Source of the DNA: Candidatus Poribacteria bacterium
Lineage (GTDB): Bacteria > Poribacteria > WGA-4E > PCPOR2b
Length of the DNA stretch: 64,000 nucleotides
Direction: 5' to 3'
NCBI GenBank assembly: GCA_965215015.1
Contig: OZ244042.1
Span: forward strand, 3,200,001 to 3,264,000
Part shown: one piece after another, positions 3,815-63,983 of the stretch
How positions within the stretch are numbered: the stretch's first letter is position 1
Layout of the letters: each line of letters starts with the position of its first letter
The notes under the pieces: model-generated
What the model was told of the DNA's origin: nothing
Databases searched by the model: none
What the model saw: the letters and a program-made list of their open reading frames with translations, nothing else
Translations under genes and position numbers: made by a program

Positions 3815-4924
3815 TTACGCACTCAACTCAAGCATCCGCTCAATTGGCGTTCTAGCCCGTTCGATGACCTCCGGCGTGAGTATGACTTCGTGAGGACTCA
3901 AATCATCGCCCTTATCCAGGGCTTGCAGGACATTAAGTACCTTACCAAGCGTGACTTTCGCCATGTGCGAACACCTTACAGAACAAGCGGTCGAGAATTG
4001 TACGGTCGGGAACTCCTGCGCTAAATTGGAGGTCAGTTCACACTCCGAAGCAACAAAAGCACGTTCCAATCGATTTTCCTCTACCCTCTTTGCGATGTCC
4101 TTCCCAATCTGACTGGTACTGCCGTAAAAATCGGCTTCCTGAAGCACCTCAGGCCTACACTCCCAGTGTGCATAAAGTATTCTCGTGGGGTGCCGTTTAG
4201 GGATGTCAAACGACTCCCTTATCGCCAAAAGGTCTGAAAGCAGGAATTTTTCATGCACCTCACACACCGCGCCTCTCTCCTGATTTCCTTTGCCAGGATA
4301 GATAACCCTCTTTGTCCCTCTAAGCTCTTCCGCTAAATTCTCCGCGAAGAAAATATCGGGAACAAAAAGGATTTCATTACCCGGCATTTCTCGGGCTATT
4401 TGGGCGGCATTTGCGGACGTGCAACAGATGTCTGATTCCGCTTTCGCATCGGCGTAGCTATTGATGTAAATCATGACAGGTACCCCCGGATATAGTGCCT
4501 TCAACTTCCTTACCTCTTCAGCTCCAAAATTATCTGCCAAAGAGCAGCCTGCTGTTTTATCCGCGGCGAGGACCGTTTTTGAAGGGTTGAGAATTTTCGC
4601 GGTTTCTGCCATGAATGGCACGCCGTTAAAGAGGATGTACGGCGCGTCGGTTTTTGCGGCGTGCATGCTCAACCCGAGCGAATCGCCCTGTTCACTTTTG
4701 GTTGATAGGCCAAATACAAGGGGCTCCATGTAGTTGTGACCGAGCATTACCACATTGTGTTTTTTCTTCAGTTTCAATATTTGGTACACTGTTTCTGCGT
4801 GAGCTTCTATGTCAATCGGCGTTAAACTGGGATGGTTCCTCTTATAGAGTTCCCGCTTTACACCTTCAACACTCAGTGCTGCTTTATCTATATTGTCTTG
4901 GGATATTGTTGGTTGGGAATTCAT
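3815..4924 (-). CDS. nadA: Quinolinate synthase
   Basis: LGHNYM, GDSL, FMAETAKILNP, AGCSLA, YINS, CCTSANA, CEVH, AHWEC, CSHM (three Fe-S cysteines). Confidence 0.93.
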   Translation of the reverse strand: MNSQPTISQDNIDKAALSVEGVKRELYKRNHPSLTPIDIEAHAETVYQILKLKKKHNVVMLGHNYMEPLVFGLSTKSEQGDSLGLSMHAAKTDAPYILFNGVPFMAETAKILNPSKTVLAADKTAGCSLADNFGAEEVRKLKALYPGVPVMIYINSYADAKAESDICCTSANAAQIAREMPGNEILFVPDIFFAENLAEELRGTKRVIYPGKGNQERGAVCEVHEKFLLSDLLAIRESFDIPKRHPTRILYAHWECRPEVLQEADFYGSTSQIGKDIAKRVEENRLERAFVASECELTSNLAQEFPTVQFSTACSVRCSHMAKVTLGKVLNVLQALDKGDDLSPHEVILTPEVIERARTPIERMLELSA

Positions 4925-5610: not shown

Positions 5611-5915
5611 AAACACGGATTCGGAACCCTCCGGGCCATCCAAGAATCGGTATGAATCTGCGATACAAAGACCTTCCAACCTCTGAGAAATGTGCCTTTA
5701 TTTTAGCTTTCCAATCTTCCATCCTTTTTAATGCGTGTTTATCTGCGGATTTCCTCGAAAATATGCTCACCGCAATCAACGGTATCTATCAAGCGCGATC
5801 TAAAGAGACGGTATATTGTTCCAGGTTGCAGACATTCTAAAATTTGCTGCAATCAAATTGTTGCGCTGTTAAGCCCGGTCTACCACACAGGACGGATCTT
5901 TACACTTTTCGCATT

Positions 5916-8441
5916 TTATACCGATCCATCGTCCAAAATTGAGACAATCCCCTGAGTTCCATCAACGTGCAAACGTTGCCCCGATTGGATGCGTTGTGTC
6001 GCGGCGGTAACATTCACCACCGCCGGAATGCCGTATTCCCGTGCGACGATAGCACCGTGTGACAACATACCACCATACTCCATCACTAATGCAGCGGCGT
6101 GGAGAAAGAGCGGCGTCCACCCCGGATCTGTTGAAGGGCAGACCAAGATATAATTTTTACCGGCAATCTGTGCATCGGCTGCATCCAGGAGGACATATGC
6201 CTCGCTGGTAGCAACGCCGCCTGACACCCCAAGCCCTTGAATTTCATCTTTTGCTTCAACCGCTTGAGGCTCGCCGATACGGTTGAGGATATCGCTGTAG
6301 ATGACGCCCGGCAGTTCAATCTTTAATAATCGCGATCGGGTTGTTTTTCGCTCCGCAATCACCGACTGGAGGTCTTCTCCTTGGGTGAGTTGATTCAACT
6401 CATCGGGTACAAGGTAGAAGATATTCCCGTCAAGTTGATAGCGTCGATCCAGTTCCAGTAAAGCTTTTCGGATTAACTCGTAGCCGAGCATGAGATAGAA
6501 TTTCGCTGTTTCTCGGAACGGCATGTACCGTTGTGTCAGGTCAAGGACTTTATTGATCTGTTTCCCAAGTGCGGCGGCTTTACCTGCTGGGAGCTGTGCC
6601 AATCTCCTTTTTGCTTTTTCTCGATTTGTCTTTTGGGCTTCAAGATGCGTTGCCGGATTCGCATCAGGATTGATGCGGAACGATGTAACAATCTGTTCAA
6701 CATAGGACGGTTCTTCACGCCAGCGAGGCTGCGCCAACTCAAATTCACCGACCGAGCGATGTCCGTATTGTTCCAAGAAATCGTCCAGCGCGCACTCGCC
6801 CTGTGCGACTTCCCACATTTTCATATTAGCATCAACGGTCAGATCGCTGTCCGACCCGGTGATTAGCAATCTAGCGAGATCTTTTGCCTCACTTTCGCTA
6901 AAACATTTTTGAAGGGTAATTTCCAACTGCTGATAGGAAAAGTTTGCAAACACCGTCGCCTTGAGCGCGTCCTTAGCAAACTTATTGAGTGTTTTATCGC
7001 ACCATTCGTGGAATTTATCAATCACCTGTTGATCTGACAGTTCTTCAAGCGAAATTTGTCTTTGCGTCTGGACATACTGTTCAAACGCGGGAAAGATTTT
7101 TTCGGAGAGAATTCTATCGAGATTTTTACGAATTTTACTATGTTTGAGTTCAGCGGTAATTGCCTTGACGATATAGTAAGGAAACTTGATCCAAAACAGA
7201 GGGTTACTACGTTTGATGTTTGGAGTCGGTTGTGGATAGACTGCCTTATGTGGGTCGCGTTTGAGTTGCTGAAAATCGTGTTCAAACAGAAATCCATGGA
7301 AATTAAATTCTACTTCTCGACTCAAGTTGAAGTAGAGGCGTCCACAGATTAGATCTAGCATTCCCTCCTCATCGAACCTACGGCTGGGTAGAAAACCCAA
7401 CTCCCGGCAGGTCAGTCCAAACCCACCTCGCCCCGACATAAATTCCCGCATGATTGCCCATGTCATGGGAAGGGGGTGGGGTAGGACTTCGGAGAGATTG
7501 TATCGACTCCAAACCGTTCCGCCTTCATCGGCTTTCTGCTGGAGGGCTTCAATTTCCTGATGGCGCAGCTGCTCAATCTCGGCTGCGTCCGTGAGCGTTG
7601 TTATGGGGCGTGCCTGAAGCAAATAGAACTGTCCGTTGACGTGTCCCCATTCGATGTCTTGGGGAGTGCCATAGAACGCTTCCACTCGCATACCAATCTG
7701 GCTGAGTTCAGTAACCTGTCCACGTTGCAGGCTCGGAATCTCCCGTTGACCAATTGGCACGGCTTGCACTCCCTCACGTGCAATCATTTTCCGTTTAGTT
7801 ACTACGGTCTCCCGGATGAGTTCACCGGTTGCTCGTGAGACCATAAAGTGATCGGGTGTAACGTCTCCGGAAACAACGGACTCTCCCAAGCCCCAGTTTG
7901 ACTCGATGACCAGTTCATCACTCCCTGTCGGACTGCGGGTAAACATAACCCCGGAAACTTCAGCGTCGATCATTGCCTGTACCACAACAGCCATCGCCAA
8001 CGGTGTTTCCTCAATTCCGTGGTCCCGGCGATAGGCAACCGCACGCTCTGACCATAGGGACGCCCAACATAACTTAATCTTCTCCAAAAGTTCAGATGCT
8101 CCATAGACATTTAGGAACGTATCCTGTTGTCCAGCAAAACTGGCGTTGGGAAGATCTTCTGCGGTCGCAGACGAGCGTACCGCAACTCTATCTGCACCTA
8201 ATTCGTGATAAGCCGTTAAAATCGCCGACTGGAGCGCACTCGGTAGTGTAATGGCTTGGACGGCTTCACGGCTCCACATATCAACCCCTTCAACGGTGGT
8301 AGGATATGCGTCGGTCGTAACACAGAAGCCGGGTGGCACAAGAAATCCCGCCGCCGTCAACTTGCCAAGATTCAACCCTTTTCCACCGACAAGTGGGAGG
8401 GCAGCGTCATCAATTTCTGTTAGATGTTTGATCAATGTCAT
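5916..8441 (-). CDS. PEP-utilizing enzyme (PPDK_N ATP-grasp + substrate domain + C-terminal phospho-His swivel), rifampin-phosphotransferase-like architecture
   Basis: VGGKGLNL, VAVRSSATAEDL, SFAGQQDTFLN, QDIEW, LQARPIT; C-terminal TDPGWTPLF and GGMLSHGAIVAREYGIPAV. Confidence 0.85.
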   Translation of the reverse strand: MTLIKHLTEIDDAALPLVGGKGLNLGKLTAAGFLVPPGFCVTTDAYPTTVEGVDMWSREAVQAITLPSALQSAILTAYHELGADRVAVRSSATAEDLPNASFAGQQDTFLNVYGASELLEKIKLCWASLWSERAVAYRRDHGIEETPLAMAVVVQAMIDAEVSGVMFTRSPTGSDELVIESNWGLGESVVSGDVTPDHFMVSRATGELIRETVVTKRKMIAREGVQAVPIGQREIPSLQRGQVTELSQIGMRVEAFYGTPQDIEWGHVNGQFYLLQARPITTLTDAAEIEQLRHQEIEALQQKADEGGTVWSRYNLSEVLPHPLPMTWAIMREFMSGRGGFGLTCRELGFLPSRRFDEEGMLDLICGRLYFNLSREVEFNFHGFLFEHDFQQLKRDPHKAVYPQPTPNIKRSNPLFWIKFPYYIVKAITAELKHSKIRKNLDRILSEKIFPAFEQYVQTQRQISLEELSDQQVIDKFHEWCDKTLNKFAKDALKATVFANFSYQQLEITLQKCFSESEAKDLARLLITGSDSDLTVDANMKMWEVAQGECALDDFLEQYGHRSVGEFELAQPRWREEPSYVEQIVTSFRINPDANPATHLEAQKTNREKAKRRLAQLPAGKAAALGKQINKVLDLTQRYMPFRETAKFYLMLGYELIRKALLELDRRYQLDGNIFYLVPDELNQLTQGEDLQSVIAERKTTRSRLLKIELPGVIYSDILNRIGEPQAVEAKDEIQGLGVSGGVATSEAYVLLDAADAQIAGKNYILVCPSTDPGWTPLFLHAAALVMEYGGMLSHGAIVAREYGIPAVVNVTAATQRIQSGQRLHVDGTQGIVSILDDGSV

Positions 8442-8526: not shown

Positions 8527-9579
8527 TCAATCCGACTGTTGCTCTGGAAATGGAGCGCGGATATCGTAACGTCCCTCTACAAATACAGGTAGCATGCCCC
8601 CTTCAACCATCAAATCCAATGGGTTAGGACGTGTAGTTAGCGGAAACTTGACAACATCCTTAATTCGTAAAGATTCATAAATCGCCATCAGAATTGCCAT
8701 CGTCGTAGCGGCGTGTCTGCCTGCGTTGCGATGTTCCTCAATTTCTTCATCAAGCCACGCAACCATTTCTTCAAACTGATTCGGTTCACTCTGACGCGGC
8801 GTGATGGTCTGCCAACCCGCGCCCTTGCTATTGAGCAACTCAATTGTTCCATCTGCACCGCGCCTGAGTTGACCGTCGCTCCCGTAAACAGCATCGCCCC
8901 GCAGACTGGGTTCAGGCAAATCGCTCTCATAGATTCCGCGGATGCCGCCTTCAAAGCAGATTTCGCCCATGCAAACGTCTTCACAACGTACCCGGCGCTC
9001 CCACTTATCTGTCCGCCGAGAGACTTGTCCAATTAACCACAACGGTTCCGGATCGCCGAGGATGTAGCGCATTTCGTCAATCTCATGTGTGCCTCGATTG
9101 AGTAAACCATACCCATCGCGCCGCAACATCGCCTGCGGTTCGCCGATCGCGCCTTCCTGAATGAGTCGTCGTGCCTCACAATTCTGGGGCATAAAACGTC
9201 GTTGATGCCCGATGACGAGCTTGGTCCCACTCTTTCCACAAGCGTCCATCATATCCTGCGCTTCACCATAGGAGGCACTCATCGGTTTCTCACCGAGGAT
9301 TCCCAACATCCCTGCCTCTGCAGCAATCAACGTAAGTTCGGCGCGCACACTTTGCCATGTTGTAATACTCACAACGTCCAGTGTCTCTTTTTCAAACATT
9401 TCGTGGACATCAGTATAATGCGTTGGTAGTGAAAATTCCGTTGCTAGCCTAGCAGCGGCATCTGGATTCATATCCGCTGCGGTCACTACCTCCGCGCGCC
9501 CGGTGGTTGGCCAAGCGTTAGCATGAGATCTTCCCATCCCACCACAACCAATAATTCCAACTCGGTATGTTTTAGCCAT
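8527..9579 (-). CDS. Gfo/Idh/MocA family oxidoreductase
   Basis: VGIIGCGGMG, EKPM, GHQRRF; start moved to the ATG at 9579 behind AAGGAG. Confidence 0.9.
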   Translation of the reverse strand: MAKTYRVGIIGCGGMGRSHANAWPTTGRAEVVTAADMNPDAAARLATEFSLPTHYTDVHEMFEKETLDVVSITTWQSVRAELTLIAAEAGMLGILGEKPMSASYGEAQDMMDACGKSGTKLVIGHQRRFMPQNCEARRLIQEGAIGEPQAMLRRDGYGLLNRGTHEIDEMRYILGDPEPLWLIGQVSRRTDKWERRVRCEDVCMGEICFEGGIRGIYESDLPEPSLRGDAVYGSDGQLRRGADGTIELLNSKGAGWQTITPRQSEPNQFEEMVAWLDEEIEEHRNAGRHAATTMAILMAIYESLRIKDVVKFPLTTRPNPLDLMVEGGMLPVFVEGRYDIRAPFPEQQSD

Positions 9580-22212: not shown

Positions 22213-22252
22213 TGGTATTTAAGAGCGTACTTCTGTAAAAGGATACAATTTT

Positions 22253-24940
22253 ATGCAACGTCAGCAAAAATTATTACTGAGTTTTATAGTTGGGGGACTT
22301 ATGCTGTTCTACGGAATAGCTGTGGCAGCTGCCCTGACTCCCCAAGAGATTGCTAAAATCGCTTTAGGTTCTACGGTACACCTGTATATCATAAATACTG
22401 AGGGCGGGAGCATTGGTCGTGGTAGCGGATTTTTCGTTGGCTCCAACCGGGTTGCAACTAACTATCACGTTATCGAACCTATCTTAAATGAGGGTGCACT
22501 CGGAGGCGCGAAGTTGGTTGGAAAGGACGAAATATACGCCATTGAGGATATCGTTAGCTCTGATAAGGAGAAAGATCTGGCAATAATAAAAGTCAGAGAC
22601 GTAAAAGGTACAGGGATCGACGTACCTGCGCTCCCCCTTGGTGACAGTGATGCGGTTCAAATTGGTGAGCAGATCTATGTGGCGGGCAATCCACAGGGAT
22701 TGGAAGGTACATTCTCGAATGGTATTATCAGTGCAATTCGACCAGTAGTTCGAGGCAAAATACTCCAGATGACAGCCCCGATTTCGCCGGGGAGCAGTGG
22801 CGGTCCCGTCCTAAACGAAAGCGGTGAAGTCATTGGTATCTCTGTCAGTTCTCGTGGAGATGCACAAAATCTCAATTTCGCTATTCCCGTAAATGATCTC
22901 AAGCGACTGGCTAATATACCAATCACTCCGACCCCCGTTAAGCCGACACCCGTCAAACCCAAGGTCGGATCTCCGCCTATCAAGCCAAAACCGGTCAAAC
23001 CCAAGGTCAATCCACCACTTGTCGAACCGAAACCGGTCAAGCCCCAAGGCGATCCATCACCCGTCAAACCGAAACCGGTTAAACCTCCAAAGGATCCACC
23101 AAAGCTGGAGCCACCGAAACCCCGTGCCCGTCATGACGGGCTTAAAAAAGGAATCAAATTATATGAACAGGCAAAATACAATGAGGCAATCAAAGTCTTA
23201 AGCTCAACCATACGAGAGCTTGAAGATTCGGAACAGCAAGCACTAGCCTATCTTTACTTAGGCTGCTCAAAACGGGGATCCGGTGAAGGCTATGACAAAG
23301 TGAGAGAGCAATTCCGAGAATCAATTCGCCACAATCCAAATCAAAAATTGCCGCCAAGGGTAGGGAAAGATCACCCAATTTTTGCTGAGGTGCTCGACGA
23401 AGTACGCAAAGAATTAACAGGTGAATTGACCGTAATCTCTTTGCTACCCCAAACGGAGATCTGGATTTATGGCACGGGAACTGATAGGAAACTGTTAGGC
23501 ACTGGAATCGTCAGCAGCAGGTTACTTAGGGGCAACTATATTGTAGAAGGCATTTATGGAGAGAAATCCCAAAGGAAAACGATTGCAATCGAACCCAATC
23601 GCCCTGAGGTACTATATCTTGAGATACCACCCATTGTGGAGCATGATTCTCCTTCAAGAATATCCGTCGGCGAAAGAATCCCACTTACATTGAATCTAAT
23701 CAGCTCTAAAGGTCCCCAACAGGTTACGATCAACTACAAGACCTATGATAGAGACGGCAATGAATTAGAACAGAACAATCAAGATATGCGTTTGTGGGAT
23801 CAGCAATCCGAATCATCGACGTGGATCTACAAGGTGGGTTTACCTTCACAAAAATACGTTGGTTCGATTGGGTACTACATTGAGGTCGTATATGAGAACC
23901 GTTTGATGTTTAGGCAGCCGGCCACCCAAAACCGTCATTATCAAATCTCTATTTTTGATGATAAGCCTCCAAGTATTGATCTACTAAATCCACCTGAACG
24001 TGCCCAATTCAGAGTCAATCAACAAACCACCGTCAGAGCAGAGGTGATAGATAACAGCGTTGTAGAGGAAGTTCGTATTTATTTTTTAGCACCCAATGAC
24101 CAAATCCAAAAACTGTTCAAAGAAGGATCCTCGGATATGTACATTAAAAATATTACATTCACGCAAGCTGGATCCGTAGAGTATTATTTAACCGCAACTG
24201 ATGAAGCGGGAAACGAAAGCCAATCGGAATCGAGACATATAGACATTAGACTGGAAGCGGTTCCGCAAAAACCAGTGGAAGAGCCGCAAGAAGATAAAGA
24301 AACTCTTGAAGATGAAGAGTGGGTTACTCCAATTGAACCGGGTACCCCTGGAAAGCCCGGTGCAGGGGGGCCGCCTCCTTTTCCTCTAGTCAAACCGGTC
24401 TCCCCAAATATATCAAGGAATCTGGTATATCAAGGAATCTGGGCAAGTGTCGCTGCTAACGACGCTTCTACTTCTGATTGGGATGGGGGTAATATGTTCA
24501 GGCTCGCTTACCTACGTGAGGGTAAAACGCATCCAACGCTAGGTGCACGACTAGATTTGTCTCATCCAGATCGAACGAACTTGAGTGCAATTGTTCAGTG
24601 GGGGCCCACTTTAGAAAATAGCAATATTGGATTGACGTTTCTGGGTGGCATTGCAGAGTACGAGAATTTTTTTGCTAAAGGCCCCGCGGCGAGATCAGCT
24701 CACGTGACACCTATTCTTGGTGCAGGTTTGAAGTTCTATCCGCATGAAAAAATTGTAATTGATGCCACAAGTTCAATTAAATTACGGTCAGATTATGACA
24801 CGACAGATCTCTATCACTATGAAATAGGAGCCCGTGTTTACATAATCCGCGAATTGAATCTGAGGATTGGATATGGCAAATTGTACTTAGGCAATCGAAA
24901 CTTCACCACTATGCAGGTTGGACTTGGATATACCTTTTGA
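22253..24940 (+). CDS. Secreted trypsin-like (S1C) serine protease with Pro/Lys linker, TPR, Ig-like domains and a C-terminal beta-barrel-like domain
   Basis: Signal peptide; triad TNYHV / DLAII / PGSSGGP; PVKP repeats; ends in alternating strands ...MQVGLGYTF. Confidence 0.85.
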   Translation: MQRQQKLLLSFIVGGLMLFYGIAVAAALTPQEIAKIALGSTVHLYIINTEGGSIGRGSGFFVGSNRVATNYHVIEPILNEGALGGAKLVGKDEIYAIEDIVSSDKEKDLAIIKVRDVKGTGIDVPALPLGDSDAVQIGEQIYVAGNPQGLEGTFSNGIISAIRPVVRGKILQMTAPISPGSSGGPVLNESGEVIGISVSSRGDAQNLNFAIPVNDLKRLANIPITPTPVKPTPVKPKVGSPPIKPKPVKPKVNPPLVEPKPVKPQGDPSPVKPKPVKPPKDPPKLEPPKPRARHDGLKKGIKLYEQAKYNEAIKVLSSTIRELEDSEQQALAYLYLGCSKRGSGEGYDKVREQFRESIRHNPNQKLPPRVGKDHPIFAEVLDEVRKELTGELTVISLLPQTEIWIYGTGTDRKLLGTGIVSSRLLRGNYIVEGIYGEKSQRKTIAIEPNRPEVLYLEIPPIVEHDSPSRISVGERIPLTLNLISSKGPQQVTINYKTYDRDGNELEQNNQDMRLWDQQSESSTWIYKVGLPSQKYVGSIGYYIEVVYENRLMFRQPATQNRHYQISIFDDKPPSIDLLNPPERAQFRVNQQTTVRAEVIDNSVVEEVRIYFLAPNDQIQKLFKEGSSDMYIKNITFTQAGSVEYYLTATDEAGNESQSESRHIDIRLEAVPQKPVEEPQEDKETLEDEEWVTPIEPGTPGKPGAGGPPPFPLVKPVSPNISRNLVYQGIWASVAANDASTSDWDGGNMFRLAYLREGKTHPTLGARLDLSHPDRTNLSAIVQWGPTLENSNIGLTFLGGIAEYENFFAKGPAARSAHVTPILGAGLKFYPHEKIVIDATSSIKLRSDYDTTDLYHYEIGARVYIIRELNLRIGYGKLYLGNRNFTTMQVGLGYTF

Positions 24941-58937: not shown

Positions 58938-60581
58938 TCACTCAAGCTTTTGAAGCGACTCCTCAATATCGGCTTTGAGACTTTCATTCCCGTTCTGTTT
59001 CGCAAGTTTCAAGGCAGTTCTGAGGTCTTGCTTCCCCTCCCAAAGACGTTTCAACCCCACCTTCGCATCTCCCCGACAGTAGTATAAATAGGCATCATCG
59101 GGTTCGAGACGGATAGCTGTGTCATAATCGGTAATAGCGGCGGCATATTGCCCTAATTCCTCCTTCGCATATCCCCGGCTGTAGTAAGCATAGACATAAT
59201 CAGGTTTGAGACGGATAGCCGTGTCATAATCGGTAATAGCGGCGGCATATTGCCCTAAGTCTGTTTTTGCATATCCCCGACAGCAATAGGCATAGGCATA
59301 ATCGGGTTCGAGGCGGATAGCCGTGTCATAATCGGTAATAGCGGCGGCATATTGCCCTAAGTCTGTTTTTGCATATCCCCGACAGCAATAGGCATAGGCA
59401 TAATCGGGTTCGAGACGGATAGCTGTGTCATAATCGGTAATAGCGGCGGCATATTGCCCTAAGTACCTCTTCGCATAGCCCCGAAAGGAGTAGGCAATGG
59501 CATAATCGGGTTCGAGGCGGATAGCCGTGTCATAATCGGTAATAGCGGCGGAATGTTGACCTAAATCTGTTTTTGCATTTCCCCGGCTGTAGTAAGCCTC
59601 GGCAAAATCGGGTTTGAGGCGGATAGCCGTGTCATAATCGGTGATAGCGGCGGCATATTGCCCTAAGCTCTCCTTCGCACCCCCCCGGCTGTAGTAAGCC
59701 TCGGCAAAATCGGGTTCGAGGCGGATAGCCGTGTCATAATCGGTAATAGCGGCGGCATATTGCCCTAATTCCTCCTTCGCATCTCCCCGGCTGTAGTAAG
59801 CCTTGGCATAATCGGGTTTGAGACGGATAGCCGTGTCATAATCGGTAATAGCGGCGGCATATTGCCCTAATTCTGCTTTTGCAGCTCCCCGAAGGCAGTA
59901 GACATAGACATAGACATAATCAGGTTTGAGACGGATAGCCGTGTCATAATCGGTAATAGCGGCGGCATATTGCCCTAAGTCTGTTTTTGCATATCCCCGA
60001 CAGCAATAGGCATAGGCATAATCGGGTTTGAGACGGATTGCTGTGTCATAATCAGAGATAGCGGCGGCATATTGCCCTAAGTCTGTTTTTGCATATCCCC
60101 GACAGCAATAGGCATAGGCATAATCGGGTTTGAGACGGATTGCTGTGTCATAATCGGAGATGGCGGCGGCATATTGCCCTAATTCCTTCTTCGCATCTCC
60201 CCGGCTGTAGTAAGCCTTGGCATAATCGGGTTTGAGACGGATAGCCGTGTCATAATCAGAGATAGAGGCGGCACATTGCCCTAACTTCCCCTTCGCATAT
60301 CCCCGACAGCAGTAGGCCTCGGCATAATCGGGCTTGAGGCGGATAGCCGTGTCATAATCGGTAATAGCGGCGGAATGTTGCTCTAACCTTTCCTTCGCAA
60401 AACCCCGAGAGACATAAACATCGGCATAATCGGAGTTGAGGCGGATAGCCGTGTCATAATCAGAGATGGCGGCGGAATATTGCCCTAAGCTCTCCTTCGC
60501 ATCTCCCCGACAGCAGTAGGCCTCGGCAAAATCGGGTTTGAGACGGATTGCGATGTTCATAATCAGTATTGCGATTTTCAT
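58938..60581 (-). CDS. TPR-repeat protein, 15 intact 34-aa repeats (3' part of a frameshifted gene)
   Basis: A.AY..RG.AK..LGQ..AAI.DYDTAIRL.PD repeats; 102-bp DNA periodicity. Confidence 0.85.
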   Translation of the reverse strand: MKIAILIMNIAIRLKPDFAEAYCCRGDAKESLGQYSAAISDYDTAIRLNSDYADVYVSRGFAKERLEQHSAAITDYDTAIRLKPDYAEAYCCRGYAKGKLGQCAASISDYDTAIRLKPDYAKAYYSRGDAKKELGQYAAAISDYDTAIRLKPDYAYAYCCRGYAKTDLGQYAAAISDYDTAIRLKPDYAYAYCCRGYAKTDLGQYAAAITDYDTAIRLKPDYVYVYVYCLRGAAKAELGQYAAAITDYDTAIRLKPDYAKAYYSRGDAKEELGQYAAAITDYDTAIRLEPDFAEAYYSRGGAKESLGQYAAAITDYDTAIRLKPDFAEAYYSRGNAKTDLGQHSAAITDYDTAIRLEPDYAIAYSFRGYAKRYLGQYAAAITDYDTAIRLEPDYAYAYCCRGYAKTDLGQYAAAITDYDTAIRLEPDYAYAYCCRGYAKTDLGQYAAAITDYDTAIRLKPDYVYAYYSRGYAKEELGQYAAAITDYDTAIRLEPDDAYLYYCRGDAKVGLKRLWEGKQDLRTALKLAKQNGNESLKADIEESLQKLE

Positions 60582-60796
60582 AATCGTTGATAGCGGCGGA
60601 ATGTTGCCCTAATCCCTCCTTCGCATATCCCCCGACTAACGTAAGCATAGGCATAATCGGGTTTGAGACGGATTGCTGTGTCATAATCGGAAATTGCCCC
60701 CTGATAGTCCCCCAACCTTGATTTGTCAGTACCTCGAAGGAGGTGGGTCTTAGCAGATATGGATTGACTCTGTTGCAAAAGCTGTAATCCCTTCAA
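60460..60796 (-). pseudogene. Frameshifted 5' TPR repeats of cassette 1
   Basis: G5 instead of G4 at 60629-60633 and a short imperfect duplication at 60547-60585 break the frame. Confidence 0.8.
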
Positions 60797-61076
60797 TGGT
60801 GTATGTTATGTTCTTACCCGCCAACTTTGGGGTGCCTTGTGCTGCACCTTCGATGACGTGGTAGTTGGTAGCGATCAGGTGCTGCCGGACAAAAAAGCCG
60901 CTGCCCCGTCCGAGGGGTATACCGTTTCTATCCTGTATCTCTAAAGATACGGTAGCCGCTAGTGCTTTTTCTGCAATCTGTGGTGCGGTTTGCGCGTTGC
61001 TTGTGGGGCAGTATAGCAGCACGATCACAAGTGAAACTAGATGCAGCTGCTCTAATAATTTTTTCTGATGTTTCAT
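60750..61076 (-). pseudogene. Signal peptide plus truncated trypsin-like domain (cassette 1)
   Basis: Signal peptide, GSGFFV, ATNYHVIE; lacks the Asp and Ser motifs seen in the intact paralogue 22253-24940. Confidence 0.8.
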
Positions 61077-61142
61077 TGCATCTCCCCTTCGTAAATTCAC
61101 CTGTGTCTAAAAGATTATGTTTCTGTTTTGGATATTAATTTC

Positions 61143-61312
61143 GCATTTCAGTTTGTAGTAGGGTAATTCATTGCGCTTTCGGACGGGCGATCAATCGCCC
61201 TACTACAAACCTACGCCCTTGCTGTAGTTGCCCGATTCATTGGGCGTTGGCAATGGTGTCAGCGATGAATCGCTGAACGACAAAACTTTGAACGTTCAAC
61301 TGCGTGAGTCCT
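61143..61312. repeat. Copy of the 31215-31734 element lacking the nested MITE
   Basis: CGCATTTCAGTTTGTAGTAG...CTACTACAAACCT...GTAGTTGCCCG...TGCGTGAGTCCTA. Confidence 0.75.
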
Positions 61313-61669
61313 ACTGGTTTTCTTTTGTACGCTATTATACCCTATCCTCTAAAAGTGTTGCAACATTCTGTCTAAATCTGTATTTTAAGATTAACAGGGT
61401 TGATTCTATTCGCCCCTATTTATTATCCTGAAAATCGTTCCATCCTGAGCATCCTGATTCTGACAATTTATACCACCCTCCCTGATACCATCATTCATCC
61501 CGTTCGACAGCGACTGGTGTGGAGCAGGTGATTTAAGGCATCATCTTGAACTGTTACGCTTTGGGCTTCAATAAGAGCGGTAACTACCCGCTATATCGGT
61601 GCGAGCCACGTAACACCTTTTTGCTGTGTAGGTTGTCAATTCACCTCCCGCGCAACGGGTTTATTCTCA

Positions 61670-63703
61670 CTAGTCCACTGCTTGAAGGTGTGCCTCAATT
61701 AAGGCTTTGAGAATTTCATCCCCATTCTGTTGTGCAAGTTTCAAGGCGGTTCTGAGGTCTTGCTTCCCCTCCCAAAGACGTTCCAGCATCATCTTCGCAC
61801 GTCCTCGGTCGTAGTAAGCCCTGGCAAAATCAAGTTTGAGATGGATTGCGATGTCATAATCGGCGATGACAGCGGAATATTGCTCTAAGTGCCACTTCGC
61901 ATTTCCCCGGCCGTAGTAAGCCTCGGCATCATCGGGTTTGAGACGGATAGCCTCGTCATAATCGGCGATAGCGGTGGAATCTTGCCCTAAGTGCCACTTC
62001 GCATTTCCCCGACTGACGTAAGCCCTGGCAAAATCAAGTTCGAGATGGATTGCGATGTCATAATCAGCGATAGCGGCGGAATATTGCCTTAAGTCTGCTT
62101 TTGCATCTCCCCGACTGACGTAAGCATAGGCATCATCAGGTTTGAGACGGATAGCCTCGTCATAATCAGCGATAGCGGCGAAATGTTGTCCTAAGTTTGC
62201 TTTTGCCCTTCCCCGAAAGTAGTAAGCATAGGCATCATCAGGTTTGAGACGGATAACCATGTCATAATCGGCGATGGCGGCGGAATGTTGTCCTAAGTTT
62301 GCTTTTGCCCTTCCCCGATTGGCGTAAGCATAGGCATCATCAGGTTTGAGACGGATAGCCTCGTCATAATCGGCGATGGCGGCGAAATGTTGTCCTAAAT
62401 TCCTCTTCGCATTTCCCCGAAAGTAGTAAGCATCGGCAAAATCGGGCTTGAGACGGATAACCATGTCATAATCGGCGATGGCGGCGGCATATTGTCCTAA
62501 GTGCCACTTCGCATTTCCCCGATTGGCGTAAGCATAGGCATCATCAGGTTTGAGACGGATAGCCTCGTCATAATCAGCGATAGCGGCGGAATGTTGCCCT
62601 AAGTTTGCTTTTGCCCTTCCCCGAAAGTAGTAAGCATCGGCATCATCGGGTTTGAGACGGATAGCCTCGTCATAATCGGCGATGGCGGCGAAATGTTGTC
62701 CTAAATTCCTCTTCGCATTTCCCCGAAAGTAGTAAGCATCGGCAAAATCGGGCTTGAGACGGATAACCATGTCATAATCGGCGATGGCGGCGGAATGTTG
62801 CCCTAAGTTTGCTTTTGCCCTTCCCCGAAAGTAGTAAGCATCGGCATCATCAGGTTTGAGACGGATAGCCTCGTCATAATCAGCGATAGCGGCGAAATGT
62901 TGTCCTAAGTTTGCTTTTGCCCTTCCCCGAAAGTAGTAAGCATCGGCATCATCAGGTTTGAGACGGATAGCCTCGTCATAATCAGCGATAGCGGCGAAAT
63001 GTTGTCCTAAGTTTGCTTTTGCCCTTCCCCGATTGGCGTAAGCATAGGCATCATCTGGGTTGAGGCGGATAGCCGTGTCATAATCAGAGATGGCAGCGGC
63101 ATATTGCCCTAAGTTTGCTTTTGCCCTTCCCCGGCTGTAGTAAGCATAGGCATGATCGGGTTCGAGGCGGATAGCCGTGTCATAATCAGAGATGGCAGCG
63201 GCATATTGCCCTAAGTTTGCTTTTGCCCTTCCCCGGCTGTAGTAAGCATAGGCATGATCGGGTTCGAGGCGGATAGCCGTGTCATAATCAGAGATGGCAG
63301 CGGCATATTGCCGTAATTCCTCTTTCGCCAATCCCCGAAGGACGTAAGCCTCGGCAAAATCGGGTTCGAGGCAGATAGCCGTGTCATAATCAGAGATGGC
63401 GGCGGCATATTGCCCTAAAACCACCTTCACAATTCCCCGGCTGTAGTAAGTATGGACATAATCGGGTTTTAGACGGATAGCCGTGTCATAATCGGTGATA
63501 GCGGCGGCATATTGCCCTAAGTCTACTTTTGCCCTTCCCCGATTGGCGTAAGCCTCGACATAATCTGGGTTGAGGCGGATAGCCTGCATATAGTCCGCAA
63601 TCGCCCCCTGATAGTCCCCCAACCTTGATTTGTCATTACCTCGAAGGAGGTAAGTATCAGCAGATATGGATTGACTCTGTTGCAAAAGCTGTAATCCCTT
63701 CAA
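61670..63703 (-). CDS. TPR-repeat protein, 19 34-aa repeats
   Basis: Open 677-codon frame of TPR repeats; TTG start lacks a clear SD and overlaps the upstream protease fragment. Confidence 0.85.
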   Translation of the reverse strand: MKGLQLLQQSQSISADTYLLRGNDKSRLGDYQGAIADYMQAIRLNPDYVEAYANRGRAKVDLGQYAAAITDYDTAIRLKPDYVHTYYSRGIVKVVLGQYAAAISDYDTAICLEPDFAEAYVLRGLAKEELRQYAAAISDYDTAIRLEPDHAYAYYSRGRAKANLGQYAAAISDYDTAIRLEPDHAYAYYSRGRAKANLGQYAAAISDYDTAIRLNPDDAYAYANRGRAKANLGQHFAAIADYDEAIRLKPDDADAYYFRGRAKANLGQHFAAIADYDEAIRLKPDDADAYYFRGRAKANLGQHSAAIADYDMVIRLKPDFADAYYFRGNAKRNLGQHFAAIADYDEAIRLKPDDADAYYFRGRAKANLGQHSAAIADYDEAIRLKPDDAYAYANRGNAKWHLGQYAAAIADYDMVIRLKPDFADAYYFRGNAKRNLGQHFAAIADYDEAIRLKPDDAYAYANRGRAKANLGQHSAAIADYDMVIRLKPDDAYAYYFRGRAKANLGQHFAAIADYDEAIRLKPDDAYAYVSRGDAKADLRQYSAAIADYDIAIHLELDFARAYVSRGNAKWHLGQDSTAIADYDEAIRLKPDDAEAYYGRGNAKWHLEQYSAVIADYDIAIHLKLDFARAYYDRGRAKMMLERLWEGKQDLRTALKLAQQNGDEILKALIEAHLQAVD

Positions 63704-63983
63704 TGGTGTATGTCATGTTCTGACCCGCCAGTTTTGCGGTGCCTTGTGCTGCACCTTCGATGACGTGGTAGTTGGTAGCGATCAGGTGCTGCCGGACAAA
63801 AAAGCCGCTGCCCCGTCCGAGTCGTATACCGTTTCTATCCTGTATCTCTAAAGATACGGTAGCCGCTAATGCCTTTTCTGCAATCTGTGGTACGGTTTGC
63901 GCGTTGCTTGTGGGGCATTGTAGCAGTGCGATCATAAGTGTAACTAGATGCAGCTGCTCTAACAATTTTTTCTTATGTTTCAT
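63657..63983 (-). pseudogene. Signal peptide plus truncated trypsin-like domain (cassette 2)
   Basis: AAGGGGAG SD; same truncation and same out-of-frame junction as cassette 1. Confidence 0.8.

Follow-up and report, generated by a model that had tools for sequence, protein, structure and literature searches.

Among TPR proteins in general, the most variable positions of the repeat are 2, 5, 9, 12, 13, 33 and 34, and HOP binds its ligands through positions 2, 5, 6, 9, 12 and 13, as given in the accessible part of Magliery & Regan 2005 (PMC1261162). TPR Pfam families (PF13414, PF00515, PF07719 and others) are the commonest repeat domains in poribacterial genomes, and some of the proteins carry signal peptides, according to the available text of Kamke et al. 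2014 (PMC3909097). In that text, supplementary tables aside, the word 'peptidase' does not occur and a protease-TPR fusion is not described. Residue variation focused on binding-surface codons is also a feature of DGRs, whose variable regions in cyanobacteria lie in CLec domains (PMC7517822, in the portion available).

We analysed a window of 64,000 nucleotides from a Candidatus Poribacteria genome (contig OZ244042.1). Its minus strand carries 102-bp (34-codon) repeats, for which TRF reported 14.7 copies at 59060-60568 and 17.4 copies at 61811-63585. TPR array A (58938-60581, minus strand) is a 547-residue ORF starting from ATG, with 14 in-phase 34-residue units, caps and a conserved C-terminal tail (...RLWEGKQDLRTALKLAKQNG...). 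TPR array B (61670-63703, minus strand) is a 677-residue ORF with a TTG start; besides its 17 in-phase units, it has a first unit, a cap and the C-terminal tail found in A. A third array, that of copy C, lies just past the end of the window and contributes 4 in-phase units. The 35 in-phase units of the three arrays were analysed together; they were caught by a 'DYD' anchor, leaving out the end caps, the first B unit and the frameshifted units. The ORFs of arrays A and B matched TPR_1/TPR_11 at E values of 1e-101 to 1e-133, with 432 and 409.6 bits for TPR_11 and 326.3 and 359.8 bits for TPR_1 (Pfam cut-offs 26.8 and 27.8). Hence, the arrays are tetratricopeptide repeats, their 34-residue units exceeding the Pfam gathering scores, and the 102-bp repeat arrays that the initial annotation had placed at 58938-63703 are borne out by periodicity, in-phase units and domain matches.

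The remaining parts of these genes were found to be broken. The copy B remnant ORF (63657-63983, minus strand; 108 residues) holds a signal peptide and an N-terminal fragment of the protease, whose Trypsin_2 match (E 4.6e-4, 21.4 bits) lies under the cut-off of 27.6. The copy A remnant ORF (60750-61100, minus strand) holds a signal peptide and ~100 residues from the start of the Trypsin_2 protease, with the region of the catalytic His only, and stops just past a deletion junction at ~60778-60780. In copy B, the junction lies at 63685-63687 and the TPR frame is off by one base. Residues 1-101 of relatives aligned at 72-73% identity to 63983-63687 and 61076-60780, and residues 232 onward aligned in a different frame; for residues 102-231, the GSSGG serine motif among them, neither window copy had a counterpart. 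Clearly, both copies carry an out-of-frame deletion of ~130 residues, the catalytic Asp and Ser included. The leading TPR units of copy A (60599-60778, minus strand), located by three-frame translation and by tblastn of the relatives' residues 232-343 (frame -3), are readable only in frames other than that of array A. The same frameshift pattern occurs in copy C, the start region of which is gone.

Copies B and A are separated by a spacer (61101-61669, no strand assigned) with short dispersed repeats at ~61130-61310 and 61378-61475. These have ~40 matches genome-wide, and a depth spike is seen at the spacer, most of which was duplicated together with the gene module. Copies A, B and C end in tails matching the ones seen in four relatives (L002, L004, L009 and L010) and in an intact paralog, with the shared pattern ...W.[AG]K.DL.TA.KLA...G...LK..IE... 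It may be noted that the protease-deleted, frameshifted nature of the window genes had been missed in the initial annotation.

The window copies are members of a family with signal peptide, Trypsin_2 protease and TPR array: the leader and the start of the protease are homologous, the array and tail are kept, and the full protease domain is missing. Candidatus Poribacteria, a group of sponge symbionts, have many genes of this family; the nearest named relatives of the genome analysed belong to that group, and its bearer is probably a sponge symbiont as well. The window's own genome has an intact paralog of 604 residues (Trypsin_2 E 5.6e-30) at 5.64 Mb, and the syntenic genome G003 has four intact genes (648, 625, 558 and 471 residues) beside IleRS. 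The protease domain of the intact paralog matched DegP/HhoA structures (S1C) at E 2e-21 to 6e-20. Assignment to the HtrA/DegP family proper was considered and rejected, as the paralog reached 110.7 bits against TIGR02037, far under the cut-off of 416.2, and showed TPR families and no Pfam PDZ match; HtrA has PDZ domains, in place of which this family has TPR repeats. Of the HtrA/DegP triad, Asp and Ser are deleted in the window copies. Secreted fusions of a trypsin-like protease with TPRs form a large family associated with Poribacteria, which in the searches made carried names from automatic annotation only. Its tandem clusters gain, lose and break copies between species, which bears on the evolution of eukaryote-like repeat proteins in sponge symbionts.

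Taken together, a secreted protease-TPR gene is very probably present as three degenerate paralogs in tandem, two of them inside the window, with variation that is the ordinary TPR pattern and involves no RT, template or adenine mutagenesis. The ancestral gene would have encoded a signal peptide, a trypsin-like (Trypsin_2, HtrA-related) protease, a TPR array and the conserved tail. One out-of-frame deletion of ~130 residues, including the catalytic Asp and Ser, would have preceded the duplication of copies A and B, with further frameshifts common to copies A and C. Purifying selection would hold the scaffold residues, and the concave-face, ligand-contacting residues (2, 5, 6, 9, 12, 13, 34) would be free to change, selection on them being relaxed to moderately diversifying. 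The groove changes would be ordinary point substitutions, units and blocks being copied by unequal recombination or conversion. In the intact family, the groove presumably binds substrates or partners for the protease; the window copies are probably non-functional or reduced to TPR-only products.

Among the 35 units, residue variation was concentrated at TPR positions 2, 5, 6, 9, 12, 13 and 34, just as the initial annotation had it, with lesser variation at positions 17, 18, 22, 26 and 31. These seven are generic hypervariable concave-face TPR positions. They lie on the concave face as in the grooves of HOP TPR1/TPR2A, and the arrays also conserve the general TPR scaffold residues Y4, G8, A20, Y24, A27 and P32, so far as the accessible part of PMC1261162 allows comparison. 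Unlike in Magliery & Regan 2005, the contrast between groove and scaffold is seen here within one recently expanded array family, not across all TPR proteins, and the ligand is only putative. When the intact paralog (not the window arrays) was used as query, the best solved-structure matches of the TPR part were designed consensus TPR proteins (CTPR; PDB 8bu0 and 9qhb, E 7e-29 and 1.5e-49). Like CTPR, the window arrays are long runs of near-consensus 34-residue units; they differ in being natural, in having variable groove residues and in carrying a family-specific C-terminal tail.

Pairwise pN was 0.479 at the 7 groove codons versus 0.029 at 22 scaffold codons, a difference far beyond chance. 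Pairwise pS was 0.278 for scaffold codons and 0.374 for groove codons. The scaffold codons had been described as nearly fixed, which is contradicted by this scaffold pS and by a median unit identity of 82/102 nt. Similarly, variation had been placed mainly at codon bases 1-2, but mean nucleotide diversity was greatest at third codon positions (0.233, versus 0.196 and 0.148), and groove third bases vary too: position 9 is AGG in 9 units, position 2 mixes T/G, position 12 A/G and position 13 C/A/T/G. All position 5 codons are NNC and all position 6 codons NNY. Parsimony placed 7.79 changes per site on bases 1-2 of the groove codons versus 2.63 on other third positions. In near-identical units, 7 scaffold differences were synonymous versus 1 non-synonymous. 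Together with the long open frames, this 7:1 ratio speaks against prolonged neutral decay, and TPR-only proteins may still be functional.

The ratio of groove dN to overall dS was 1.6-2.3, scaffold dN/dS was 0.06-0.15, and groove dN/dS was above 1 in array B. The excess of groove dN is soft, as the 7 codons were picked for being variable and the unit pairs are non-independent. An excess of dN over dS may indicate a force beyond neutrality at the groove codons, and selection presumably acted on ligand binding. A groove dN/dS of ~1-2 is in line with selection that is relaxed to moderately diversifying, units being duplicated by recombination. The initial annotation had offered intense diversifying selection plus conversion as its fallback; groove selection with conversion or recombination fits the data, but a ratio of this size does not show the selection to be intense.

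Its leading proposal was DGR-type adenine mutagenesis from an AAC AAT CGG GGA AAT template, with a search for A-enriched substitutions and for a DGR-class RT with a template repeat as the checks. Both checks were negative, which makes two of the three observations it had named as refuting the proposal, and adenine mutagenesis failed every test that could be run. Adenine occupies as many as 13 of the 42 invariant columns (CAA codon 16; GAT TAT GAC 23-25; ATC 28; GAT 33; AAR 11), and variable columns were no more frequent with an A consensus (16/29) than with a non-A consensus (44/73). Of 271 parsimony changes, 86 arose from ancestral A, and G, T and C were the source of 65, 61 and 59. Pointing the other way, ancestral A was the most frequent source of changes at bases 1-2 of the groove codons (50 of 109), in columns where ~40% of the bases are A as counted from the unit table. 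When each unit was tried as template, none of 1172 ordered pairs with at least 5 mismatches had 80% or more of its mismatches at A (median 0.235; per-unit maximum 0.403). Contigs from four runs, which drop rare variants, differed from the locus at 9 A, 8 C, 9 G and 9 T, with no A/T bias; these differences were bunched in single short contigs, pointing to cross-mapped repeat units.

No match to PF00078, the reverse transcriptase family, was obtained in the window's own genome, which is a single contig at 98% completeness; the family was matched in 12 of 19 other genomes of the genus and in 3 of 14 control genomes. Likewise, tblastn of a congeneric DGR RT and four group-II-type RT ORFs returned nothing from this genome at E <= 0.1. 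The unit-profile search of the genome gave 56 matches, of which 40 were in the locus; the other 16 fell in TPR coding regions or one decayed TPR remnant (42 bits, the sole non-ORF match), and no TR-like copy was seen outside the coding TPR arrays. As a positive control, the DGR of congener G004 (locus L026) showed mismatches exclusively at TR adenines in two VRs (23/23 and 21/21). That DGR has a 352-residue RT, a 114-nt TR and VRs in the '...GGSW...FRCA' C-termini of CLec-like proteins, none of which is found for the TPR arrays.

It is therefore highly improbable that the groove codons owe their diversity to a DGR, current or since lost, acting from an A-rich template through adenine-specific mutagenic retrohoming. 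DGRs do occur in the genus, and in several groove codons, as at positions 5 and 6, the third base is shared while the first two take many forms. Against this stand the lack of A-specific variability, the many invariant adenines, the plentiful synonymous and non-A changes, and the absence of both RT and template repeat. Moreover, the units of G003, a genome without RT, vary at the same TPR positions, and the genuine DGR of the genus targets C-type-lectin-like C-termini of ~114 nt rather than arrays of 1.5-2 kb, in keeping with the cyanobacterial variable regions. The result is mainly of value as a negative one: repeat arrays with a striking 'NNY-like' pattern can pass for the work of a DGR. TPR-type and DGR variation were cleanly told apart by the invariant adenines, the share of mismatches falling on template A, the divergence at synonymous sites, the searches for RT and TR, and the comparison with a DGR from the same genus as positive control.

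A different reading of the protease-less arrays is that they are working genes for TPR-only binders, cytoplasmic or otherwise exported, which diversifying selection keeps as a repertoire; their translation would begin at the internal TTG/ATG or continue from the signal-peptide ORF by +1 frameshifting. We regard it as possible, if clearly the less probable. In its favour, the ORFs run for 547 and 677 codons without a stop, scaffold dN/dS is low, scaffold differences in near-identical units are mostly synonymous, groove dN/dS exceeds 1 in array B, and the junction and array pieces were reproduced without differences in independent runs. However, the deletion junction is out of frame in copies A and B, further frameshifts are common to A and C, and C has lost its start region. 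The protease fragments of A and B differ in a manner that looks unconstrained (5 nt in synonymous versus 13 nt in non-synonymous codons). Most of the scaffold conservation could, besides, predate the deletion, because the divergence of the units (dS ~0.35) is older than the A/B split (~6% nt). A more novel reading, which we hold to be improbable, is that the fast-turnover tandem protease-TPR clusters of Poribacteria serve as a repertoire of variable binders that is driven by recombination and needs no retroelement, with the shuffling of units and positive groove selection retargeting the protease to changing sponge-host or phage ligands; protease-deleted arrays would then be still-used TPR-only decoys or a unit reservoir for shuffling.

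Silent arrays could also be donor cassettes for gene conversion into the intact 5.64 Mb paralog, as in antigenic variation of the pilS/vlsE type. Tandem promoter-proximal-defective copies with diverse groove residues, and an intact, expressed-looking paralog elsewhere, would suit such a scheme, but it is very unlikely. The units of the intact paralog are distant from those of the locus (29-70 bits versus a locus median of 100; tblastn identity <=58%), so there are no recent conversion tracts; no mosaic tracts common to locus and paralog occur in this genome, and the syntenic G003 copies are intact genes, not cassettes. Equally, there is scarcely any chance that misassembly of a long-read MAG produced the arrays or their variation and frameshifts. 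Assembly is difficult for repeat arrays, and the short-read contigs are interrupted all along these. Nevertheless, four runs from three studies yielded contigs that agree with many pieces of the locus at 0 differences; such records cover 60696-61483 and 63603-63868 and include both deletion junctions and the spacer, and the same junction is present in copies A and B.

The repeat locus at 58938–63703 belongs to a repeat-protein family typical of the lineage; it is an ordinary member that has partly decayed, and not a new diversification system. It comprises array A (58938–60581, minus strand; ORF of 547 aa, 14.7 copies of a 102-bp unit) and array B (61670–63703, minus strand; ORF of 677 aa, 17.4 copies), as delimited by ORF listing and TRF. 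When the genome sequence was read onward past the window end, a third, shorter array, C, was found at window-equivalent positions 64420–65064. In Pfam searches, both ORFs in the window matched TPR families at very high scores. Array B also passed the NCBIfam cut-off for MamA (298.5 against 200 bits), but this identity was discarded as an artefact of summing over seven repeat stretches. Using the invariant D-Y-D anchor, 35 in-phase units of 34 codons were extracted, of which array A supplied 14, B 17 and C 4; this set excludes the end caps, units with a frameshift and the first unit of B. The median identity between units was 82 of 102 nt (range 70–102). A 306-bp higher-order period reported by TRF was no better supported than the 102-bp period and was rejected. 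Lag analysis revealed local block duplications only, namely A4–A5 with A11–A12, and B6 and B8 with B9 and B11.

Across the 35 units, amino-acid variation was focused on TPR positions 2, 5, 6, 9, 12, 13 and 34, exactly as the initial annotation had observed. Lesser variation was seen at positions 17, 18, 22, 26 and 31, while positions 4, 7, 8, 11, 16, 21, 23–25, 28, 30 and 33 were fixed or almost so. The codons behaved differently from what had been described. Scaffold codons had been called nearly fixed, but only 42 of the 102 nucleotide columns were invariant, and pS at the 22 scaffold codons was 0.278 against a pN of 0.029 (Nei–Gojobori, all unit pairs). Given these values and the column diversity, the scaffold is kept as protein and not as codons. 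For the seven groove codons (the variable positions named first), the corresponding pS and pN were 0.374 and 0.479. Nor did the changes lie mainly at codon bases 1 and 2: third positions were the most diverse (mean 0.233, compared with 0.196 and 0.148). The third bases of groove codons were as variable as the others, with AGG at position 9 in 9 of 35 units and mixed third bases at positions 2, 12 and 13.

One of the explanations first offered for this pattern was adenine-directed mutagenesis by a diversity-generating retroelement (DGR), but variability was not tied to A. Adenine made up 13 of the 42 invariant columns, including those of CAA at codon 16, GAT TAT GAC at 23–25, ATC at 28 and GAT at 33, and codons with invariant A stood directly beside variable ones. 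Columns with an A consensus were variable in 16 of 29 cases, and those with another consensus in 44 of 73. In a FastTree/Fitch reconstruction, the source base of 271 changes was A in 86, G in 65, T in 61 and C in 59, corresponding to per-site rates of 2.97, 2.71, 2.90 and 2.11, respectively. At positions 1 and 2 of groove codons, A was the source in 50 of 109 changes, and A also accounts for about 40% of the bases of those columns. The published criterion for DGRs requires over 80% of the mismatches to lie at adenines of the template (PMC7517822). When each unit in turn was taken as template and ordered pairs with at least five mismatches were scored, none of the 1172 pairs reached 80%, and the median fraction (0.235) equalled the base composition. 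The best single unit gave 0.403 of mismatches at A; the value for T was 0.46. Part of the window was present in 14 of the 15 sequencing runs listed, none of which is recorded as RNA. The differences listed in run contigs (Logan, four runs), which are blind to rare variants, fell on A, C, G and T in 9, 8, 9 and 9 cases, with no A/T bias. They were bunched within individual short contigs, as would be expected of cross-mapped units.

A positive control was available in a genome of the same genus, G004, where locus L026 (G004:C1:2841500–2854500) is a genuine DGR. It encodes a reverse transcriptase (RT) of 352 aa (locus coordinates 6076–7152, minus strand), an adjoining template repeat (TR) of 114 nt downstream of the RT (5876–5989, minus strand) and four candidate variable regions (VRs; 1225–1338, 4068–4181, 7634–7747 and 9412–9525) at the C-termini of CLec-like proteins, which read '...RVLRGGSW...GFRCAR.Q'. 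For two VRs, all mismatches were at TR adenines (23/23 and 21/21), and for two more diverged paralogs 16 of 25 and 16 of 24 were. No TR was found in the spacer upstream of this RT, and the second candidate RT locus of the genome, L025, showed no direct repeats of at least 60 nt. The target of this DGR is the canonical C-type-lectin-like domain, unlike the TPRs of the window. One of the VR proteins carries about 16 WD40-like repeats of 126 nt. Homologues of the CLec-like target are numerous in the window's own genome, where RT is absent (e.g., C1:565740–566480 and C1:1497941–1498666), with at most 67% identity to the G004 target.

No TR-like copy occurred among 56 matches of the own genome to a nucleotide profile of the unit. 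Forty of these lay in the locus itself (median 100 bits). Of the other 16 (28–70 bits), most were in the intact paralog at 5.64 Mb, and the rest fell in further TPR-coding regions or in a single decayed TPR remnant interrupted by an in-frame stop. An isolated remnant of the family (C1:5782378–5782478, minus strand) retains the conserved tail and two TPR units and also contains a stop in frame. PF00078 had no match in the genome, a single contig of 98% completeness; among the other genomes of the genus, the same search detected it in 12 of 19, and among control genomes in 3 of 14. Likewise, tblastn returned nothing at E ≤ 0.1 for the RT of the congeneric DGR or for four further RT ORFs used as queries. 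Array B was matched strongly in each of seven other genomes of the genus that lack an RT (G003, G005, G007, G008, G015, G017 and G018). No description of a TPR-targeting DGR, or of the protease–TPR fusion family itself, was found in the literature searches made.

The variable positions of the window are the generic ones of TPRs: positions 2, 5, 9, 12, 13, 33 and 34, all on the concave face, are reported as the most variable across TPRs, and HOP holds its peptides with positions 2, 5, 6, 9, 12 and 13 (Magliery & Regan, PMC1261162). The units diverged long ago (dS about 0.35), and their scaffold has been under strong purifying selection (dN/dS 0.06–0.15). At the groove, dN was 1.6–2.3 times the overall dS, and parsimony gave a similar result; this excess is soft, since the groove codons were picked for their variability and unit pairs are non-independent. 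The values fit a relaxed constraint grading into moderate diversifying selection. Units and blocks have also been copied recently: A5 is identical to A12, and the sets A4/A11, B6/B9/B13 and B8/B11 differ by 1–7 nt. Near-twins often differed at groove positions by the exchange of two bases within a codon, a pattern suggestive of mosaicism through conversion. Of the other explanation offered initially, intense diversifying selection plus conversion, groove selection together with unit copying fits the data, but the intensity does not follow from so modest and soft an excess.

Ahead of each array lies an ORF of about 108 aa, in which a leader resembling a signal peptide is followed by the first part of a Trypsin_2 domain, as far as the catalytic His region; the ORF then stops, and the TPRs carry on in another frame. 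The break was mapped by aligning two intact relatives to the locus. Their residues 1–101 matched 63983–63687 (B) and 61076–60780 (A), and residues from about 232 onward matched from 63685 (B) and 60778 (A), in a different frame. Therefore, a stretch of about 130 residues that included the catalytic Asp and Ser has been deleted, out of frame and identically in A and B. Copy A has two further frameshifts in its leading units, in common with copy C, which is also without the leader. The fragment ORFs of A and B are separated by 19 differences over 327 nt, 5 of which fall in synonymous codons and 13 in non-synonymous ones; on these small numbers, the differences look unconstrained. The arrays may still make protein, a possibility kept alive by the long open frames and by the scaffold codons of near-twin units, where synonymous differences exceed non-synonymous ones by 7:1.

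A short-read contig of run X5 joins 59016, in the tail region of array A, to 61749, in that of array B, skipping 2732 nt, with 34 nt fitting either side. The joint would merge A and B, but in view of the 34 shared letters and the presence of A-specific pieces in X5 it was set aside as evidence; it may represent a strain in which a copy is missing, or a route taken by the assembly through the repeat. The 569-nt spacer between B and A contains dispersed repeats of about 100 nt (61130–61310 and 61378–61475; about 80–85% identity). It gave 121 BLAST rows in total, up to about 40 of them stacked on the two repeat parts, where contig depth spikes about 10-fold. These may be MITE- or REP-like elements.

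In intact relatives in the genus (568–884 aa), the leader is followed by a full protease domain, in which the serine motif GSSGG is present, and then by 7–16 TPRs and a conserved tail. The syntenic locus of the congener G003, beside IleRS as in the window, holds four intact tandem genes (648, 625, 558 and 471 aa), in whose 30 units the variable positions are those of the window units and 10 columns are invariant A. In the own genome, a single intact paralog remains, at 5.64 Mb (5644719–5646533, minus strand; 604 aa; Trypsin_2, E = 5.6e-30), which matched DegP-like structures at E = 2e-21. The family is large: when 8000 candidates were scored against the N-terminal 260 residues, 5266 proteins gave a match at E ≤ 0.001, and most of the 120 matches listed combine PF13365 with TPR families. 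Two of those listed are named, both 'trypsin-like peptidase domain-containing protein [Candidatus Poribacteria bacterium]', and the closest genome contigs that carry a name likewise come from Candidatus Poribacteria. TPR proteins are reported to be the commonest eukaryote-like repeat proteins in Poribacteria (PMC3909097).

A paralog of 905 aa within the window (22223–24940, plus strand) shares the leader and has a complete trypsin-like protease domain, but continues through a linker rich in Pro and Lys into a long C-terminal part without TPRs; it is the same protease head fused to a different tail. Directly downstream of the intact paralog lies a 405-aa ORF (C1:5643501–5644718, minus strand) with C-terminal TPRs and an N-terminal domain without assignment. 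The same pairing was observed in the congener G007 (locus L005), and the two may form a conserved gene pair.
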